From Patescibacteria group bacterium (GTDB taxonomy: Bacteria > Patescibacteriota > Minisyncoccia > Minisyncoccales > UBA10102): 64,000 bases of DNA. The notes below the pieces were generated by a model. That model searched no databases. It was not told where the DNA came from and saw only the letters and a program-made list of their open reading frames with translations. A program made the translations under genes and the position numbers. Positions 3,001 to 61,876 of the stretch are shown here, one piece after another. The stretch's first letter is position 1; each line of letters starts with the position of its first letter. Where the stretch lies: positions 368,572 to 432,571 of the forward strand of contig JANBVJ010000001.1 of the NCBI GenBank assembly GCA_024239055.1, given 5' to 3'.

Positions 3001-4521
3001 TCGCAATACACAGTCCCCATCAAAAAGGTATAGTGCTTCATTTGTATTACTGAGAGCCCCGGTATAAATTATGTCAGCTAATACATCAGAGATAGAGGTA
3101 TCATCCGTTCTTTCTAAAATAAAGAAGGTTTGGGCAGAAACTGTGTGTTCTTTTTTAAATATAACACTAATCTGCCTAGCCTTATCCATCAACTGCCAAC
3201 CTGCCAAATTGATTTCCTGATTTGTAATATTTTTCAATTCTATCCATTCATCACTCGCAGAATTTGTTGTTCCCATCCATGCGATTTCATTAAATATAAT
3301 TGAAGATAATTTAGGTTCATATAAAGGTATCTCGCATTGAACAATCTTAAGATCACTTTCTTTAACATCATTTATCTCTTCTGCTTTAACTTCTTCTTCT
3401 ATTTTTATATCTTCTACTATCTTTTTTTCAACAATTTCTATATCAACTACATCAGTATTTTCAATTTTTAAAACCAATTGGGTTGGAATTTCTTGTAATT
3501 CAACTTGTTCTTTAATAATTTCATTAAATTGACCTTCTAAATTTACATCTACAATCTTAATATTGTTATCCAATACTATACCAGCACCTCCTCTAATAGT
3601 TAACTTAGAAATAAACTCAGAAACATTATAAATAAAATTGTAGGCTGTGTCTGCTATTTTTCCTATTATTGCAGAAGTATCAATGCCCATATTCTCTAAT
3701 GCATCAATTACTTTCCTTGCGCTAACCAAATAATTCATAAGCTTTGTACGTTGTTCTTCTATTGGGTATGGTAAATCTTTAGAAAGTTCTAACTTAGGTA
3801 CTTCATCTGGAAATTCAATAGATACTTGCATTCTAGGAGTGGATTTAATTGCCCACCCTCTACCTTCAGATTTCACTTCTGCAATAACAGTAATTACAGA
3901 CGGCCTCACTCTACCATCGGAAGGGAGTTCGTCAGCAAAAAATGGAATTCCTATTGTTGATGAAGCAGTAGATTGTCCTGGATTAAAACTCTCTGGAGAA
4001 GAAAATTGTACCACAATCTTCCCTTCTCCTGACTCTATTTTCTTAAAAGAAAGAATATATTGAAATTCTGCTCTTGTCTTTTTATAAACAAGATTGCCAC
4101 TCGATGTACGAATCTCATTTGTAAATAACCAATCTCGTGCAATCTCATTTGCCTTCTCAATAGTTTGTTTTTCCAATTCTGTTAATAATTCTTTGACCGT
4201 TGTCTCTGGAATACTTACTAATAAACCTGCTACCTTAACTGCAATCTTAATAGTCTCTGTTGTAATAAAACCAGGTAAAAATCTTAAATATTCTTGATTT
4301 ATTGCTGCGCGTAATGTAAATAAGGCTGCTTGTTGTTCTCCATTTAAATCAACAAAGCGTACAACATTTTGATTGCTAAATTGATCAGAAATAGGTTGTA
4401 AAAACATCCAACTTTCTAAAGAAGACAAAACAAAGTCTTCTTGTGTTTGTGCACTAACAAAAATAGGAGCAACAAAAAAACTAGCAATAACTAAACATAT
4501 TGCTAATCTTTTTTGCATCAT
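1..4521 (-). CDS. Giant secreted surface protein with its C-terminus beyond the window edge (at least 1,507 codons). It has a signal peptide, three lamin-tail-domain (LTD) modules, an FN3-like module and parallel beta-helix repeats.
   Basis: My own translation of the minus strand from ATGATG (4521/4518) stays open to position 1. It is missing from the ORF track because it has no in-window stop. The N-terminus MMQKRLAICLVIASFFVAPIFVSAQ looks like a signal peptide. LTD signatures are NEIAWMGT..SDEWIELKN (~3300), ISEVQAEG..DEFVELYNPNDSDVDLDGW (~2760) and NEIAWMGTD..SDEWIELYN (~1840). NxTIxNN / GIW beta-helix repeats run from ~1250 to 1. Confidence 0.8.
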   Translation of the reverse strand, partial: MMQKRLAICLVIASFFVAPIFVSAQTQEDFVLSSLESWMFLQPISDQFSNQNVVRFVDLNGEQQAALFTLRAAINQEYLRFLPGFITTETIKIAVKVAGLLVSIPETTVKELLTELEKQTIEKANEIARDWLFTNEIRTSSGNLVYKKTRAEFQYILSFKKIESGEGKIVVQFSSPESFNPGQSTASSTIGIPFFADELPSDGRVRPSVITVIAEVKSEGRGWAIKSTPRMQVSIEFPDEVPKLELSKDLPYPIEEQRTKLMNYLVSARKVIDALENMGIDTSAIIGKIADTAYNFIYNVSEFISKLTIRGGAGIVLDNNIKIVDVNLEGQFNEIIKEQVELQEIPTQLVLKIENTDVVDIEIVEKKIVEDIKIEEEVKAEEINDVKESDLKIVQCEIPLYEPKLSSIIFNEIAWMGTTNSASDEWIELKNITNQEINLAGWQLMDKARQISVIFKKEHTVSAQTFFILERTDDTSISDVLADIIYTGALSNTNEALYLFDGDCVLRDKVIAESKWPAGLSSVRQTMERRADNTWQTSSGTDGTPKALNSSGYVETQQPPISTSSGSVSTGSGGGGGTPIAVVTYSKILISEVQAEGETVKDEFVELYNPNDSDVDLDGWALKKKTSGGTESNLVSASAFSRTIPANGYFLITPQINEDGSVNFTGAETPDLYYSGKTYSFAKDNTILLYNPNGELVDKVGFGFAEDFENSVTMNSLENQSMNRIWDEINGTYYDRDDNSIDFEVYNSTTPKAKNTSTEPESEPEPELEAQDITSPQVSFSILSETQSTVYFTLSWTGEDPIGETEPSGLDKFYLQYNVTPNADGVFLQYEENDIWQSWQQDQAGELILDATTTSLSLWGQNGVEYNFQIKAKDVAGNESALSTAQTQLSLAKSVVINEIAWMGTDASSSDEWIELYNASEEEVDLSTWSIFGADTGQCINFSEADNYKEGGENPGFIIAASEYLIYANNENTVMERIGGLSVNIADVWDATIGLNNSSPGILRLFNQQDCVDGLIDEVGLSTGAWFVEDNAKKQTMERIEATSSGSDALNWSSNNLITHNGRDADNAYINGTPGQENSLSLAETEIQGLRLTEFDSVTLTLLGSPYSILNPQIIPGGKTLVIEPGVTVNFKSGGGSLRIDGTLTAIGQSEEIITFQSSDSGSWCGMYFTSTSVNSEITFGLIDNASFRASGCSVTGPRYSVWVEDSDITINNTAIQNGDLRYKLHLDNSNSTLNSVTISGANNPSDPDASAILITGGSPTITNSTFSNNHIGIWNKFPSGTPTIQNNTFTNNKYPIKFSSSAGTISGNTASDNTYNGIYIEGAATTDLTWQAGTLPYIVSRFTVQQDKKLTLQAGVVVKFVADPNGKPDFIVQGMLTTQGTSESPVIFTTVSDDSVGGATLGDGGIITNSWRYLQFTSTSTGSVLTDTILKFGGNRNNEGTLHLDNSDITLVNITIQDSLNSAIYSNASTVTGSNLTLTDNTYGFYMQGGICPSIANITITGGEDF

Positions 4522-4539: not shown

Positions 4540-5136
4540 TTAATTAATTTCAAACCCTTCAAGTAATTTCTGAAAGTCTGCTTCGCAGTTATTTCTAAAT
4601 AATATAGTAGATATACTAAGAATATCTTCGTTATTTAAAGGCACTAATACTACAATATGAGTACCGTATTTACTAAATATCTTTGGATCCTCATAACGAT
4701 CTACAACTTGAAAACCATCATAATTACTTACCTTTATTATATCTTCATTATCATATAAGTCAGCCATCCTTCCTTTGATAGTATTAACCTCTACAAAATC
4801 TGAAATATCTTGAAATGACACATTAATTCCGCAACCTTTCGCTATAACTACTTCATCACGGAATTCTACATCTTGGCTAAATGCAGCAATCCAAAATTCA
4901 TCGTCCTCTTGTTCACCTTTTACGCTCCATCCATCTGGAACTTTAAATCTAAATCCAGCGCTTTCATTTGTTACAATAGTCCCTTCTGAAGTTTCACTAA
5001 TCTTATAATCTTCTTCTTGACTCCATTTTGTTGGTGTTAAAATAAATTCTTCTTCCTCTGTTTTGTTTAAAAATAAAAGAATCCCACCAAAAACAAGGAG
5101 AATTCCTACAGCACCAATAATAAATTTACTTTTCAT
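4540..5136 (-). CDS. Membrane-anchored hypothetical protein (198 aa)
   Basis: ORF with the N-terminal hydrophobic helix MKSKFIIGAVGILLVFGGILLFL and no recognisable motif. It lies 18 nt upstream of the giant LTD gene. Confidence 0.6.
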   Translation of the reverse strand: MKSKFIIGAVGILLVFGGILLFLNKTEEEEFILTPTKWSQEEDYKISETSEGTIVTNESAGFRFKVPDGWSVKGEQEDDEFWIAAFSQDVEFRDEVVIAKGCGINVSFQDISDFVEVNTIKGRMADLYDNEDIIKVSNYDGFQVVDRYEDPKIFSKYGTHIVVLVPLNNEDILSISTILFRNNCEADFQKLLEGFEIN

Positions 5137-5293: not shown

Positions 5294-6019
5294 TTAAAAC
5301 CCTAAAAACTCACGTAGTAGTGAAGATGAGAATACGCTTACTCTAGTTCCTTTATTAAATCCAAGCCCAAGTACTTTACCCTCAATATCAAAGATAGGAA
5401 ATCCAGTTGTTATACTTCTATCCATTGTGGTTTGGAATACACTCTCCCCTGTTGCCGTTATAATACCTTGATCCACAAATCTCTGAAGTTTACCTTGAAT
5501 AAATATAAAGCCAGAAAGAAATACTCTTGAGCCGAGCTTCGTATCGTTACCGTTACCAAAACCTCTCGTAGGAAGCCCCCCGTTCTCAATCTTTAACAAG
5601 GCAAGATTGTTAAGAACATCCCGCTTTATTACACGCGCTAAAATTGCATCAGCATCTTCATTCAAATAAATGTTTGTTACATACCCGGTAGGAACAATAC
5701 TCGCTAAGGTAACAATAAGGCCATCTGAGGTAACAACAAGCCCGGAACCCGCTATCACATTAGCACCAGATGTGCTTTTAACTCCAACAACCACGTTCTT
5801 TGTTCTCTCAAAAGATGCAACCAAGGCTTCTCCTTCATTAACCACTATTTCTGAAACAGGACTCACAACAAGAGTTCTTGCGTTCCAATCCTTAATAAAC
5901 TGCATACCCTGAAATCCGGATTGTGAAGACATATATGGCAATAAAACAGCTTGGGCCCACATGCCTCCCCCGGCTCCCAAGATAAATACCAGCAATAATC
6001 CTAGAATATTTACTCTCAT
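5294..6019 (-). CDS. HtrA/S1C-like domain protein with the catalytic triad replaced (probable pseudo-protease), N-terminal membrane anchor
   Basis: It aligns by eye to the HtrA in this window: [19 protein letters not shown] vs GSGFIVSTDGLVLTNKHVV (His->Ser), NNLALLKIE vs QDLAILQIE (Asp->Asn), ITTGFPIF vs GNSGGPIL (Ser->Thr). It overlaps the clpB stop by 4 nt. Confidence 0.65.
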
Positions 6020-43052: not shown

Positions 43053-44180
43053 TTAAGAGGATTGCTGTGGATTGCTCAAAAACCTCAGGAGTATCTCCTT
43101 GTGCATATCCAGGCTCTCAAGATCCACCCATTCTGCGGCCGCGTGCATATTTCCTCCAACAGCCCCAAAGATAAGACTCGGTACTCCAATCTCTCCAAAG
43201 TATCTGGCATCTGTAGCACCATGAGCAAAATCTAACGGTACATCTCTCCCACTCACCTCTTCTGCTACCTGTTTGAATCGCTGAACAAAAGGGTTACTTT
43301 CATCCACAAACAACATTGAAACCTTATCGAGTACTTGAACACTCACCTCAGGAACAAGGTTCTGTAGAGCCTCAAACAACTCATCTGGGGTAGAAGCCAA
43401 ATCCTCCGTGAATCTAACATCCAGTACTGCCCGTGCGTCTGCTGGCACCTTATTGGGAGTGAAATTCGAGGTTTCAATTAATCCAATGTTCACGGTGCTC
43501 TTCCACACTTCAGGTTCCATCTCCCCGACAAACTCCTTAATCTTCTTAACTGCCCCAATAATTATATCTATGGCGTTCTCTCCCTTCCATGGAAATGCAG
43601 CATGGGCACCTCTACCCTGGGCCGTAAGTTCAATCCATACTCCTCCTTTTTCTTTGGTGGTGAGACGCAAGATGTCTTCTGAGGGCCCATCTGCACACAG
43701 CACAAACTCAGGTCGCAGACCAATCTCACGCACTAAGTACCCTGCACCATCTTTACCCCCTACTTCCTCATCTGCGTTCAAGAGCAGAGCAACATTCGGG
43801 GGGTTCTCCTTTCTACCTAGCTCTTGCATCACAAGAATAAGAACTGCAACCATTCCTTTCATATCTACTGTTCCTCTCCCAATAGCTTTAGTCCCCATAA
43901 TCTTTAAAGTATACTGATCTTCCGTGTCTGCCGGAACCACATCAACGTGACCATTCAGCAAGATTGATGGTCGAAGTGCATCATATCCTTTTACAGATAC
44001 TAAAAGTGAATATTTACCATCCTTCTCAAACATCTTTGTCTCAAACACAGGATCGTCAAAGAAAGAAGTAATGTATGTGAACTCCTGCTGTATCACCTCT
44101 GGATTCTTTGCTGTCGTCTGAAAGGCAACAAGACTCCTTAGGATCTCTGTAATATCCTTTTTAGTAGTTGTATTGATCAT
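43053..44180 (-). CDS. M20-family metallopeptidase (ArgE/DapE/CPG2-like)
   Basis: LNGHVDVVP, GRGTVDMKG and NADEEVGG metal-ligand motifs. Confidence 0.85.
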   Translation of the reverse strand: MINTTTKKDITEILRSLVAFQTTAKNPEVIQQEFTYITSFFDDPVFETKMFEKDGKYSLLVSVKGYDALRPSILLNGHVDVVPADTEDQYTLKIMGTKAIGRGTVDMKGMVAVLILVMQELGRKENPPNVALLLNADEEVGGKDGAGYLVREIGLRPEFVLCADGPSEDILRLTTKEKGGVWIELTAQGRGAHAAFPWKGENAIDIIIGAVKKIKEFVGEMEPEVWKSTVNIGLIETSNFTPNKVPADARAVLDVRFTEDLASTPDELFEALQNLVPEVSVQVLDKVSMLFVDESNPFVQRFKQVAEEVSGRDVPLDFAHGATDARYFGEIGVPSLIFGAVGGNMHAAAEWVDLESLDMHKEILLRFLSNPQQSS

Positions 44181-44200
44181 ATTGTATGGGTATGAGGTGC

Positions 44201-44541
44201 CGGCGAGGAGAAAGATCTTCTCCCCGCCGACCCTTTATCTAACTACCAGCCTCGGCTGTAGCTGTGGAAGTGTCCCTTATCCATTAAGAGAACTCCTTTC
44301 TCAGATCACTCCAGGCTGTGATCTTCTAGTTATATGCAAGAAAGATGGACTTCATCTCCTTGGCCTGGAGAGCCTCCGGTATCGATCCCGGAGGCACTTC
44401 AACTCAAGCAGAATGAAAACCGACCCTCTGAAAGGGCCGTGGATATATAACCAAAATAGAAAGAATTACAATAACCAGCCCTTGTGCAAAGAGTGTCGCT
44501 TATGCCAAACGTGATGATGTCGGCTGGTAATAAAATTCATA
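44201..44541 (-). ncRNA. Candidate ~340-nt highly structured leader/ncRNA upstream of the M20 peptidase gene, class unknown
   Basis: The promoter TTGACA-16-TATACT lies at 44575..44548. At least six hand-folded hairpins are present, for example GCCTCCGG-GATCGATA-CCGGAGGC (44395-44372) and CGGCG..GGAGAA..TTCTCC..CGCCG (44229-44201). A long-range 8-bp pair joins TACCAGCC (44529-44522) to GGCTGGTA (44251-44244). Two stems are extended by G-U pairs possible only on the minus strand. Confidence 0.55.
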
Positions 44542-44547
44542 TGCTTT

Positions 44548-44575
44548 AGTATACGCATTCCAATATTCCTGTCAA
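44548..44575 (-). promoter_or_regulatory. Promoter TTGACA-16-TATACT driving the structured leader
   Basis: -35 at 44575..44570, -10 at 44553..44548. Confidence 0.55.
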
Positions 44576-44701
44576 GGACTTGTAAAAACTTTAATGGGGT
44601 TAATGGAGTATATACTTCTTGACTTTTTGCATATTATATGGTAAGAAAATACTCAGCGATAGGAAATACCAAGCAATACCAAACAGAATTGGAGCAAGAA
44701 G

Positions 44702-45154
44702 ATGAAAGTGAAAGCTACGGTTGCAACCGTAGACTCAATCAAGTTCCCAAAGCTCGCTCAGGCGCTTGATGACTTAGCGGCCGTATTCACTAATCTGAGG
44801 GATGAAGCTCAAGCAAAAGTGTTGGGTCCAAACATTACTGGGGTCGATAAAATGGGACCCGCGGAGCTATTCTTCCAAACATCAGACCGGATGGGCCTCA
44901 CAGAGAGTGGCCTGGGATGCGATATTCAAGTCTCAAGGGCGTCGACCAGCATACATCGAGCCCCAGCGAGTTTCTCAGATGCACTGATTGCGTTTGAAGA
45001 ACTCTGCAAAGAAAAAATAAGGGAGCACCTCCCTAGAGGGGAACGAATGCAGCTGCTCATGTCTTTTGCGGTCGATGCCGAAGTGCCCGACTCAAAAGGC
45101 AACTTCACTACCCTCCCTGAGACTGATGCTAACTGGGTAGATGGTGAAGCCTAA
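44702..45154 (+). CDS. Orphan hypothetical protein (150 aa), GC-enriched
   Basis: ORF with a GGAG SD 7 nt upstream and its own intrinsic terminator. GC is about 47-58% in hand-counted 60-nt blocks. No motif recognised. Confidence 0.6.
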   Translation: MKVKATVATVDSIKFPKLAQALDDLAAVFTNLRDEAQAKVLGPNITGVDKMGPAELFFQTSDRMGLTESGLGCDIQVSRASTSIHRAPASFSDALIAFEELCKEKIREHLPRGERMQLLMSFAVDAEVPDSKGNFTTLPETDANWVDGEA

Positions 45155-46652: not shown

Positions 46653-47320
46653 TTTTCTTGAAAGATAAGTACTGTAAACTCACCCTTCACCTCTTTGTTT
46701 TGCATGTTTTTTGCCACCAGGTCAAGAGGACCTCGTATTATCTCTTCAAATTTCTTGGTTAATTCACGCCCTATAACCACCTGTAAATCCTCTCCTTTCT
46801 CAGATAACTCTCTTAGAGTTTTCTGTATACGATAAGGCGACTCAAAAAATATAACAGGATGGGGAGAGTTTATTATCTCTTCAAAAAACTTGTTTCGTTT
46901 CTTTTGCGGAACAAATCCTAAAAAGAGAAAGGAGTCTGTTGGAATGCCAGCCACCGAAACTAAAGCCGTAATTGCAGACGGACCTGGAATTGGAACAATG
47001 GCCACATCAGGTAGCTCTTTATATACCGCTTCTACAAGTTTGTTCCCCGGATCTGAAACCCCAGGGGTTCCAGCGTCTGATACCAAGGCAATATCCTTTC
47101 CTTCTTTTAATAAAGAAAGAATGCTGTTTAATTTAGACTCAGAACTATGATGATGATAACTCTCCAAAGGAGTTTTAATATCGTGCCGTACTAGTAATCG
47201 CTTGGTTACTCTTGTGTCTTCTGAAAGTATTAAATCAACCTCTTTTAAAACACGAAGAGACCTTAAGCCTACATCCTCAAGGTTTCCAATGGGGGTGGCA
47301 ACAATATAGAGCGTATTCAC
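46649..47320 (-). CDS. rsmI: 16S rRNA (cytidine1402-2'-O)-methyltransferase
   Basis: LYIVATPIGNLEDV N-terminal signature. Confidence 0.85.
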   Translation of the reverse strand: MNTLYIVATPIGNLEDVGLRSLRVLKEVDLILSEDTRVTKRLLVRHDIKTPLESYHHHSSESKLNSILSLLKEGKDIALVSDAGTPGVSDPGNKLVEAVYKELPDVAIVPIPGPSAITALVSVAGIPTDSFLFLGFVPQKKRNKFFEEIINSPHPVIFFESPYRIQKTLRELSEKGEDLQVVIGRELTKKFEEIIRGPLDLVAKNMQNKEVKGEFTVLIFQEK

Positions 47321-61051: not shown

Positions 61052-61498
61052 ATGGCTACATTTGCTGACAACAGAAAAGCGTGGCATGATTATGAAATAT
61101 TAGAGACCTTCCAGGGAGGTCTTTCTTTAAACGGACAAGAAGTAAAATCTATTCGGGGAGGAAGAATAAATCTAGCGGGTTCCTACGTAGACTTAAAAGA
61201 CCAGGAATTGTTCCTAGTCGGAGCAAATATACCGCCCTATCAGCCTGCAAACGCACCGGCTAACTATAATCCAGAACGCGCAAGAAAACTTCTTCTAACA
61301 GCTAAAGAAATTAGGTATTTAATCGGGAAAGTAAAGGAGCGAGGCTTGACTTTGGTACCCTTAAAGGTGTATAGTATGAAGAGCAAAATCAAGCTTGAGT
61401 TCGGACTCGTAAAATCAAAGAAAAAACAGGATAAAAGAAATATCCTAAAGAAACGCGATGCCGAACGAGAGATGAGGAAAGCTATATTACGGGGGTGA
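61052..61498 (+). CDS. smpB: SsrA-binding protein
   Basis: NRKAWHDYEILETFQGGLSLNGQEVKS and the basic C-terminal tail. TGaTACACT lies 6 nt before the ATG. Confidence 0.95.
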   Translation: MATFADNRKAWHDYEILETFQGGLSLNGQEVKSIRGGRINLAGSYVDLKDQELFLVGANIPPYQPANAPANYNPERARKLLLTAKEIRYLIGKVKERGLTLVPLKVYSMKSKIKLEFGLVKSKKKQDKRNILKKRDAEREMRKAILRG

Positions 61499-61846
61499 CC
61501 GTTTTGACAGAAATGTACTTTAAAAGCTGCAAGTCGAGGGTGTCTAAGACCTCGCAAATCCATTAGACAAGGCTTTAAATGCCAACATATTTGCCCCTCA
61601 AAGGGCACTTGCTTACGCGTAATAACGCTTAAGCCATCCCTCTTTTGAGGCTCCATAGAAAGAGAAGGGTGTCATTATGGAGATAGGCTGAGATGATAAT
61701 TCGGCGTCTTAGTTAAAATCAAACGAATTAAAGATTGAGTACACAAGGTTGCCTTGTTTCCGTACTTAATCTCAAACAAACAAGGATACACTTGTAGAAG
61801 CTTTTAAGGAAACCTTCTGGACGGGAATTCATCTTCCCCACCTCCA
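61491..61846 (+). ncRNA. ssrA: tmRNA (ssrA)
   Basis: The 5' GGGGGTG pairs with the 3' CACCTCC, including the G3-U wobble, followed by discriminator A. A T-arm-like GGGAA-TTCATC-TTCCC is present. The tag reading frame is GCC AAC ATA TTT GCC CCT CAA AGG GCA CTT GCT TAC GCG TAA TAA (61581-61625), giving ANIFAPQRALAYA**. CCA is not fully encoded. Confidence 0.85.
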
Positions 61847-61876
61847 CAAAAATAACAAAACAATCTGGCAAATAGA

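Follow-up and report, generated by a model that had tools for sequence, protein, structure and literature searches.

The DNA from position 44575 down to 44181 of this Patescibacteria sequence, read on the minus strand, lies directly before a gene for an M20 peptidase. On the evidence of sequence comparison, it is fairly probable that this region is a two-stage 5' leader that regulates the M20 peptidase operon in cis, with as its first stage a transcription attenuator built around a leaderless leader peptide. The leader as a whole would then probably work mainly as an amino-acid-sensing switch between a leader peptide and a terminator. Below, the window is the whole stretch of 64,000 nucleotides (nt) that was analysed.

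An earlier note on this DNA had described a single, densely paired leader or non-coding RNA of about 340 nt, possibly a riboswitch. The observation itself holds up, and the reading given to it is supported in part. The region does look like a regulatory leader, but not like one non-coding RNA or riboswitch, since 135 nt of it are a short open reading frame (ORF1) plus a terminator and another 42 nt are a second short frame (ORF2). The note was right that the first hairpin exists, but missed that this hairpin is a U-tailed terminator, and it missed both small ORFs. Unannotated short ORFs at the 5' ends of transcripts can pass for non-coding RNA.

To our knowledge, gene regulation in the Candidate Phyla Radiation (CPR, or Patescibacteria) is almost unexplored, given that most of these bacteria have not been cultured and that few analyses look at their intergenic regions. 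A literature search found no report of attenuators in the CPR.

Lineages compared

The comparison covers 11 lineages including the window. These are Wildermuthbacteria/Paceibacteria-like metagenome-assembled genomes (MAGs), and they are interrelated. The ten further lineages are L014/15, L012/13, L001, L020, L052/53, L059, L054-58, L062-64, L065-68 and L051. Homologues of the leader were located by nhmmer, first with the RNA of the window as query and afterwards with a profile.

The conservation, the ORFs, the terminator, the alternative pairings and the covariation described below are direct observations. The tests on T1, 2:3, Pb and Pc (all introduced below) used custom scripts with shuffle controls, and these are not phylogeny-aware. 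A MAFFT alignment of T1 has two rows out of register, and no pair counting is based on it.

Stage 1: a putative leaderless attenuator

The features of the first part of the leader, and the gene it precedes, are:

44548..44575, minus strand: sigma-70-type promoter, TTGACA-16-TATACT, matching 11 of 12 consensus positions
44466..44540, minus strand: ORF1, 24 codons plus stop, MNFITSRHHHVWHKRHSLHKGWLL, with its ATG 7 nt past the -10 box and its stop codon at 44468-44466
44522..44530, minus strand: region 1, UUACCAGCC, codons 4-7 of ORF1, partner of region 2
44472..44483, minus strand: region 2, AAGGGCUGGUUA, codons K-G-W-L, partner of region 1 or of the 5' half of T1 (antiterminator)
44439-44421, minus strand: stem-loop CGGCCCUUUCAGAGGGUCG of the intrinsic terminator T1, with the U-rich tail GUUUUCAUUCUGCUU at 44420-44406, from a terminator scan
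43053..44180, minus strand: gene for an M20 (ArgE/DapE-like) metallopeptidase or deacylase, assigned by Pfam and NCBIfam, with no Shine-Dalgarno (SD) sequence and, as read by eye, no separate promoter

The first 135 nt of the leader are a leaderless short ORF and an intrinsic terminator in attenuator geometry. The promoter, already called near-consensus in the earlier note, is the sole promoter-like site that a promoter scan finds within 44000-44900. A TTGACA and a -10 box stand at the equivalent position in 11/11 lineages (the L014 promoter was read by hand). Transcription is predicted to start at about 44541-44540, which is at the ORF1 AUG or 1 nt before it.

All 11 lineages have an ATG of the ORF1 type, 6-10 nt past the -10 box and opening 24-29 codons. 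Frame 0 is open in every lineage, frame +1 is closed in every lineage, and frame +2 is closed in 7 of the 11. By chance, an open frame would have a probability of 0.15-0.36 per lineage. Within the window, ORF1 is unique in combining a promoter, a short ORF and a terminator. The leaderless layout is frequent in this genome: for 10 of the window's 51 long ORFs, a sigma-70-like promoter is placed with the end of its -10 box 5-10 nt ahead of a start codon, and an SD-like motif is found for only 12 of the 51.

ORF1 is enriched in His and Trp codons. Over the whole ORF1 set, Trp stands at 7.5% and His at 8.9%, versus 1.3% and 1.8% in the window's long ORFs (5-6-fold). In the stall-competent part of the frame, His reaches 12%, Trp 6.4% and Tyr 6.4%, where the long ORFs have 1.8%, 1.3% and 3.3%. 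The stall-competent codons include His plus either Trp or Tyr in every lineage. Codons 8-13 of the window's ORF1 read HHHVWH, and the relatives carry one or two of each kind of regulatory codon, without runs. A peptide pattern also recurs, W-H-x-Y ... [KR]-G-W-L.

The leader can form the pairings 1:2 and 3:4 or, to the exclusion of these, the pairing 2:3, in 11/11 lineages, with ORF1 running through region 2. It had been noted earlier that TACCAGCC can pair with GGCTGGT (44480-44474). This is the 1:2 pairing, and it is conserved. The 1:2 duplex has an energy of -13.9 kcal/mol in the window, where it is part of the minimum free energy (MFE) structure, and of -11 to -17 kcal/mol across all lineages, with differing sequences. 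The 2:3 duplex comes to -14.1 kcal/mol in the window and to between -14 and -21.6 in 11/11 lineages, with a shuffle p <= 0.02 for each. Its strands covary, as in AAGGGCUG/CGGCCCUU (window), GAGAGCUGGUUA/UGACCAGCUCUC (L065) and AAGGAGUUGGUUGU/ACAGCCACUCCUU (L054). At the T1 position, a hairpin with a U-rich tail is present in 11/11 lineages, again with differing stems.

The motif of region 2, AAGGGCUGGUU (44483-44472), is conserved across lineages. L065 reads its conserved GCUGGUU as E-L-V and not as G-W-L, with the ORF still open, and L051 has G-L-L, so G-W-L is not kept as a peptide in these two. The different reading frame of GCUGGUU in L065 means that the constraint on region 2 acts on the RNA, which fits an attenuator and not a functional peptide.

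Constrained folds mimic the position of a ribosome. They were counted in ten lineages; L065 was left out, as T1 was mislocated there. With the first 30-42 nt masked, as by a stalled ribosome, the 2:3 pairing forms and T1 does not, in 10/10 lineages. With masking up to 10 nt past the stop codon, T1 forms in 10/10. The unmasked MFE structure has 1:2 plus T1 in four lineages, the window among them.

The proposed mechanism is as follows. With ample charged tRNA, the ribosome would reach the ORF1 stop codon and cover region 2. T1 would then form, and transcription would end at the U tail, at about 44410. A ribosome stalling in the His/Trp cluster of codons 8-13 would instead cover region 1 and leave region 2 free. 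The free region 2 would pair with the 5' half of T1 to form the antiterminator, and RNA polymerase would read on. In this genome, stage 1 would most likely sense the charging of His- and Trp-tRNA. The net logic would be that a shortage of His, Trp or another aromatic amino acid turns on a peptidase that releases amino acids.

The central domain

Beyond T1, the leader continues with a central domain of about 105 nt (44408-44303). It consists of three covarying hairpins, and is the only part of the leader that behaves as structured non-coding RNA:

44359..44408, minus strand: Pa, a long hairpin, from covariation and RNAalifold
44395-44372, minus strand: Pa2, the inner stem of Pa, GCCUCCGG/CCGGAGGC, which is the GCCTCCGG hairpin
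44383-44388, minus strand: palindrome AUCGAU in the apical loop of Pa, GAUCGAUA; the outer stem, Pa1, uses CUCCAGGCC
44363..44370, minus strand: switch element CUCCAGGC, better conserved than any other stretch of the leader, partner of the Pa1 5' strand or of the Pc loop
44337..44362, minus strand: Pb hairpin, CAAGGAGAUG-AAGUC-CAUCUUUCUUG, in 9/11 lineages
44303..44324, minus strand: Pc hairpin, AGAUCAC-AGCCUGGA-GUGAUCU, with a loop GCCUGGAG (44316-44309) complementary to CUCCAGGC

Pa has 16 pairs, with 92.6% of cells paired versus 78% in shuffles, and six of the pairs have changed on both sides. Its covariation score is 0.367 against 0.102 in shuffles. None of 500 shuffles reached this score, and it drops sharply when the partners are slid along each other. 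RNAalifold independently predicts Pa. The compensatory changes in Pb include CAAGG/CCUUG, CGAGG/CCUCG and CGCG/CGCG. A Pc hairpin with a GYCUGG loop is present in 10/11 lineages (combined shuffle p about 2e-11). The Pc stems differ nearly lineage by lineage, and only the close relatives L001 and L059 share one. Pa, Pb and Pc are thus a conserved, covarying structure in a 5' untranslated region, which is a generic feature of riboswitches.

The switch element contains the most rigid part of the leader, as TCCAGGCC is invariant in 11/11 lineages. The pairing of CTCCAGGC (44370-44363) with the Pc loop, seen earlier in the window, has held up. All 11 lineages retain this CCAGGC:GCCUGG helix, which is also the independent choice of RNAalifold. 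Across lineages, the two partners of CUCCAGGC are comparable in duplex energy. In the window, pairing with the Pc loop is clearly stronger than pairing with Pa1, at -16.3 versus -6.4 kcal/mol. By its sequence, the Pa-Pb-Pc domain would be either a pseudoknot or a switch. In all lineages, the end of the domain precedes an A-rich linker and an SD by 1-8 nt.

The apical loop of Pa always holds a 6-nt palindrome, which varies by lineage: AUCGAU, ACUAGU, AGUACU or UAAUUA. The same palindrome is repeated just 5' of Pa in 7/11 lineages. The palindrome might serve for loop-loop dimerisation, form an alternative pseudoknot or be bound by a protein. Pairing of the Pa loop with the box on its 5' flank, as a pseudoknot, was tried and rejected: it is available in 7/11 lineages, is absent from the window and is sterically incompatible with Pa1.

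All this raises the question of whether the central domain is itself the sensor. It could be riboswitch-like or bind a tRNA or protein, with the CUCCAGGC switch controlling ORF2 and M20. Possible ligands could be an aromatic amino acid, a peptide or tRNA-Trp, and such a sensor could act alongside the upstream attenuator. The strong covariation of the three hairpins speaks for this, as do the invariant 8-12 nt single-strand or switch element, its two mutually exclusive partners of similar energy and the long-range helix in every lineage. The domain also always directly precedes an SD-led ORF, whichever ORF that is (L065 and L051 have a different one), and it has no Rfam match. But no set of conserved unpaired bases resembling a binding pocket is defined, and CCAGGC and GCCUGG never covary, showing G-U-compatible changes only. 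No conserved helix sequesters an SD or a terminator, and the weak Pa1 partner in the window means there is maybe no switch there. The distribution is very narrow too, with 1 true match in 241 million metagenome records. On balance we regard a sensor in the central domain as unlikely, though worth keeping in mind.

A related and likewise doubtful idea is that the Pa-Pb-Pc pseudoknot is a new sensory RNA class of a CPR branch, sensing a metabolite or tRNA in series with the attenuator. If true, one leader would integrate tRNA charging, through the ribosome, and a second signal, through the RNA, to control how an organism of minimal biosynthesis scavenges amino acids. In any case, its covariation, built-in alternative pairing and lack of an Rfam match make the central domain a candidate new class of regulatory RNA.

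ORF2, T2 and the start of M20

The remainder of the leader holds a second small ORF and a last hairpin:

44300-44293, minus strand: Shine-Dalgarno sequence GAAAGGAG
44284-44243, minus strand: ORF2, 42 nt, SD-led, 13 codons, MDKGHFHSYSRGW-stop, ending in Gly-Trp-stop
44196..44233, minus strand: T2, a very stable hairpin of about 17 bp without U tract, ending 15 nt before the M20 ATG (44180)

An SD and a short ORF2 of 11-29 codons are found in 8 lineages. In 6 of these 8, ORF2 ends in G-W-stop, with in-frame 3-nt indels and synonymous changes at its end between lineages. The conserved C-terminus is [YH]-[CS]-R-G-W-stop. ORF2 is rich in His (11.5%), Tyr (8.6%), Trp (6.5%) and Gly (17.3%), and also in Phe. 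In L065 and L051, a different ORF comes after the SD.

A hairpin of 16-19 bp is present at the T2 position in 8/8 lineages examined, and its G-rich and C/U-rich strands covary. It has no consistent U tract, and its distance to the ORF2 stop is 9-31 nt. A role for T2 as a translation-controlled switch was considered and dropped, as masking ORF2 leaves T2 unchanged and the spacing to the stop varies this widely.

Stage 2 would start from the RNA that is read through at T1. This RNA would fold into Pa-Pb-Pc, where CUCCAGGC would switch between the base of Pa and the Pc loop GCCUGG. The switch sits just upstream of the SD for ORF2, with its His/Tyr/Phe-rich frame and Trp-stop end. Stage 2 might then be a second checkpoint, on the translation or the stability of the read-through mRNA, ahead of T2 and the SD-less M20 start. 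Our confidence in such a checkpoint is low.

There are some further observations on this part of the leader. L012 and L013 have an identical M20 protein, and L013 has a deletion of about 106 nt (L012 about 4690-4795). It takes out most of ORF2 and part of T2, fusing the ORF2 start to a further ORF, ORF3. The deletion may be true strain variation or an assembly artefact.

Most relatives have a third family of small ORFs between T2 and M20, of 19-63 amino acids, with an N-terminus MxCPxxFW[DE]xRW and often ...VPVP... further on. This ORF has its own SD and a following hairpin, and is absent in the window and in L020:

Third small ORF: L014 4402-4533; L054 2226-2417; L059 2268-2384; L012 4832-4948; L051 2235-2411

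The 15 nt before the M20 ATG, 44181-44195, are C/A-rich and G-poor, with no SD. The sequences after T2 in the relatives are likewise pyrimidine-rich and G-poor. As a speculation, the stretch after T2 resembles a Rho-utilisation site.

Both small ORFs could also encode functional peptides: a signal, a toxin or the precursor of a cofactor or of a ribosomally synthesised and post-translationally modified peptide, with a C-terminal Trp, processed by M20. This would explain the conserved C-terminus of ORF2 with its synonymous changes and in-frame indels, the recurring pattern in ORF1, and the adjoining third ORF family in relatives. However, the locus has neither a linked modifying enzyme (radical SAM, P450, cyclase) nor a linked transporter, and ORF2 is lost in L001 and L013. 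The ORF1 G-W-L codons lie in another frame in L065, and codon composition aside, the sequences diverge strongly between lineages. The neighbouring Phe-run and Cys-rich ORFs with their terminators (see below) are classic sensors. Functional peptides are for these reasons quite improbable.

Weighing the two-stage reading

Stage 1 of the two-stage leader is the best-supported part. Its geometry and conservation are there to be seen, and from these we infer transcription, translation and the amino acid that is sensed.

Several points weigh against this account. Where transcription starts, and that ORF1 is translated, are both predicted. There are only a few regulatory codons, a mixture of His, Trp and Tyr, with no run except for the HHH-V-W-H of the window, and one of the Trp codons of ORF1 sits inside region 2. 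The window's T1 is modest, with 8 bp, -10.5 kcal/mol and an interrupted U tract. The unconstrained MFE favours the 2:3 antiterminator in 5/11 lineages, which means that basal termination there would hinge on folding kinetics or on the ribosome. Further downstream, L001 has a truncated ORF2 and L013 has lost it by deletion, and T2 lacks a U tract and showed no switching. The comparison rests on 11 lineages, which is few, and they are related. Finally, the physiological logic is a guess, as the M20 substrate is not narrowed down.

Folding, strand and known RNA families

The minus-strand RNA of 44545-44181 has an MFE of -136.6 kcal/mol, versus -103.4 +/- 5.5 in shuffles (z = -6.0). The plus strand of the same interval reaches -121.0 kcal/mol (z = -4.3). 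Two G-U pairs in T1 and a U-G in Pa1 of 11/11 lineages confirm the minus strand, in line with the earlier argument from G-U pairs.

Six helices had been folded by hand, and all are in the minus-strand MFE structure. Five of them are supported in relatives: GGCCCT is T1, GCCTCCGG is Pa2, GGAGATG is Pb, AGATCAC is Pc and the last one is T2. The sixth, GAGAA-AGGAG-TTCTC, is not conserved. A check for covariation in relatives had been suggested, and among the proposed helices Pa, Pb and Pc do covary. The leader had also been called rich in GC. This is true of 44200-44499, at 0.487, relative to the roughly 0.38-0.42 of most neighbouring stretches, but 43600-43899 and 44650-45099 are equally rich (0.49-0.52).

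No known RNA family had been recognised in the region, and this still stands. For the window and 8 relatives alike, a scan with Rfam 15 at gathering thresholds finds no family at the locus, be it T-box, RNase P, SRP, 6S, lysine, TPP, ZTP, the Trp, His and Phe leaders or any other. With a looser cutoff (E <= 10), 44100-44750 yields only eukaryotic microRNA and small nucleolar RNA matches, far below threshold. Together with an E-value scan of the 8 relatives, the matches are all implausible eukaryotic microRNA, small nucleolar RNA or long non-coding RNA ones, and no credible family comes up. RNase P, signal recognition particle (SRP) RNA and T-box were also held against the sequence by eye and dropped, and the E <= 10 scan of the region lists none of the three. 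Elsewhere in the window, Rfam matches one tmRNA and one tRNA, and nothing more. Judged from these sequences, the leader is a real, conserved element that is limited to a narrow CPR clade and lies outside described RNA families.

The strong conserved promoter, the z of -6 and the conserved helices would also suit a structured RNA of about 340 nt that stands alone and has a function of its own, which the earlier note had offered as an option. The T1-terminated RNA of about 130 nt could for its part act in trans, as rnTrpL reportedly does in Sinorhizobium. But a 340-nt RNA would be split by an internal terminator, contains two conserved ORFs with proper start signals, and has no defined 3' end, T2 being without U tract. 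The helix that would close it, 44529-44522 with 44251-44244, was proposed earlier and is not conserved, as judged by eye on the sequences of relatives. An independent RNA is unlikely because the leader always lies on the same strand as, and directly 5' of, peptidase genes with no consensus promoter between them: a scan for a second sense-strand promoter-like site before M20 found none in the window (44548-44180) or in four relatives. All in all, a stand-alone RNA is very improbable.

Two other candidates were set aside. A repeat or mobile element was dropped, as the hairpin is unique in the window and no second copy of the leader is found there. The plus-strand ORF at 44173-44514 (113 amino acids) is treated as spurious, having no family match and overlapping conserved minus-strand features.

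Relation to known systems

Attenuation by leader peptides is not new, and stage 1 has four of the structural features by which such attenuators are defined, and the codon run in part. Like trpL, hisL and pheL of E. coli (Trp_leader, His_leader and Phe_leader in Rfam), the leader described here has a short ORF in which codons for the amino acids that would be sensed are enriched, four segments with 1:2 and 3:4 exclusive of 2:3, and a U-tailed terminator before the structural gene. The stop codon is also placed alike, such that a terminating ribosome covers region 2. Unlike in those systems, the ORF here is leaderless: it lacks an SD, and its AUG is predicted to open the transcript. The codons are a mix of His, Trp and Tyr without a run, and the regulated genes are peptidases and not a biosynthetic operon. 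There are also about 230 nt of additional conserved structure and a second mini-ORF, and the three Rfam families resemble it neither in sequence nor by covariance model.

Leaderless small ORFs have been described elsewhere, as polycysteine attenuators in mycobacteria (Canestrari et al., 10.1101/834739) and as predicted leaderless leader peptides in Deinococcus deserti (PMC4007540). Shared with these are a first cistron with a 5' AUG on a polycistronic mRNA, stalling at specific codons that changes the downstream RNA, and several codon biases per genome or clade, which here are His/Trp, Phe-run and Cys-rich. The mycobacterial mechanism is translational, freeing a sequestered ribosome-binding site, whereas the U-tailed terminator here indicates transcriptional attenuation. 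The phylum differs as well.

A two-stage plan has a precedent. The leader of the B. subtilis at (rtpA) operon has a T-box that senses tRNA, followed by the leader peptide rtpLP with Trp codons, and the stop of this mini-ORF overlaps the next SD. The order of read-through and then a mini-ORF check with Trp codons by the stop would be common to both. Here however Rfam detects no T-box, and the T2 hairpin intervenes after the mini-ORF.

Pseudoknotted riboswitches of the ZTP/pfl and preQ1-III type similarly have a hairpin loop that pairs with a distant conserved strand, enclosing a hairpin, directly 5' of an SD. In contrast, the leader has no Rfam riboswitch match even at E <= 10, and its pairing competes with an ordinary stem. 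Nascent-peptide arrest leaders like TnaC, SecM and SpeFL need a conserved motif, where here G-W-stop of ORF2 is kept in 6/8 lineages and G-W-L of ORF1 is lost in L065 and L051.

What is new in stage 1 and in the leader as a whole is the leaderless form, the mixed codons, the peptidase targets in the CPR and an unclassified, conserved pseudoknot or switch domain.

Distribution, neighbourhood and sister elements

M20 homologues at 50-66% identity are found in Wildermuthbacteria and Paceibacterota MAGs. On their contigs the gene order is conserved: an AI-2E transporter gene, rsmI, metS, then a gap without assigned genes, then M20. This gap 5' of M20 is 650-1000 nt long in relatives, with few or no called genes, and the leader lies inside it. 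In the window this gap has 521 nt (44181-44701), between the minus-strand M20 gene (43053-44180) and a divergent ORF of 150 amino acids (44702-45154). A search of genome contigs with the M20 protein delivered one useful relative only. A pattern scan of 241 million metagenome records gave 34 matches, of which L020 is the only true one, and a pattern scan of viral contigs gave 120 chance matches and no true leaders. The P0057 contig stops too near the gene to inform on the leader.

The closest solved structure to the M20 protein is the uncharacterised 2rb7. The genes 3' of the leader on the same strand are always peptidases: M20, M24 then M20, or an operon ending in M20. In relatives, a gene for DAHP synthase or prephenate dehydratase comes after M20. 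Upstream of it, a further short ORF of the leaderless kind contains a run of five or six Phe codons and is accompanied by an intrinsic terminator. Examples are MQSQSSRYFFFFFFTSPAKSLEVLI and MKRQSSKNFFFFFTSLAKSLENFVA, with MKQSNRFCFYFFFTGPAKSQDFLM (L051, FCFYFFF) as a weaker variant:

Phe-run ORFs: L012 6163-6240; L059 3860-3937; L051 5140-5214; L014 about 5708-5785; L052 about 3622-3699

By their sequence, these Phe-run elements are predicted pheL-type attenuators in leaderless form, in CPR bacteria. Downstream of M20, L062 has a Cys-rich leaderless ORF, MNFMQASMRNCCPCCVVCRARSLKL, with a terminator (3573-3753). There is a weak match between this element and the 5' part of the leader profile, at an E of about 8e-5. 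Since Phe-run and Cys-rich leaderless ORFs both come with adjoining terminators, the clade carries an attenuator device with varied codon specificities.

Together with these sister elements, the locus suggests leaderless ribosome-mediated attenuation in these bacteria. Its targets would be peptidases and the few amino-acid enzymes that have been retained, and this offers a handle on amino-acid sensing by an obligate scavenger.

L051 also has a strong SD and a four-codon mini-ORF, MQGW-stop, followed by a terminator, at about 4660-4790. Its G-W-stop end is as in ORF2.

Several relatives have a TrpR-family gene (PF01371) 3' of M20. Its leaderless promoter carries a perfect palindrome, GTACTAGTAC, which has the same sequence as the core of the trp operator in E. 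coli:

TrpR gene and GTACTAGTAC sites: L060 3610-3660 and about 4010-4030; L065 3630-3670; L062 about 4060-4090; L051 4235-4280

In many leaders, GTACTAGT directly precedes Pa1 and ACTAGTAC lies in the loop of Pa, and CTAG is strongly under-represented in the window (89 observed versus about 226 expected). The window's single GTACTAGT box is at 47188, within a gene. One could take from this that the palindromic boxes are DNA operators for a TrpR-family repressor acting as a roadblock, with the hairpins as by-products of DNA palindromes, but this is extremely improbable: the window's Pa loop has AUCGAU and not CTAG, its leader has no GTACTAGTAC-like box, tblastn finds no TrpR-like gene within the 64 kb window, L051 breaks the correlation by having GTACTAGTAC together with a UAAUUA loop, the stems have U-G pairs that are meaningful only in RNA, and the sites are about 150 nt downstream of the start. 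The operator reading of the Pa-loop palindrome was rejected for the window and for L051.

The window's tmRNA, at 61491-61849, is a full-length Rfam match of 130 bits. ARAGORN reports no tmRNA in the window, and this one may be divergent. The divergent 150-amino-acid ORF next to the leader (44702-45154, plus strand) has no Pfam or NCBIfam match, and at its position relatives carry different small ORFs or a histidine kinase.

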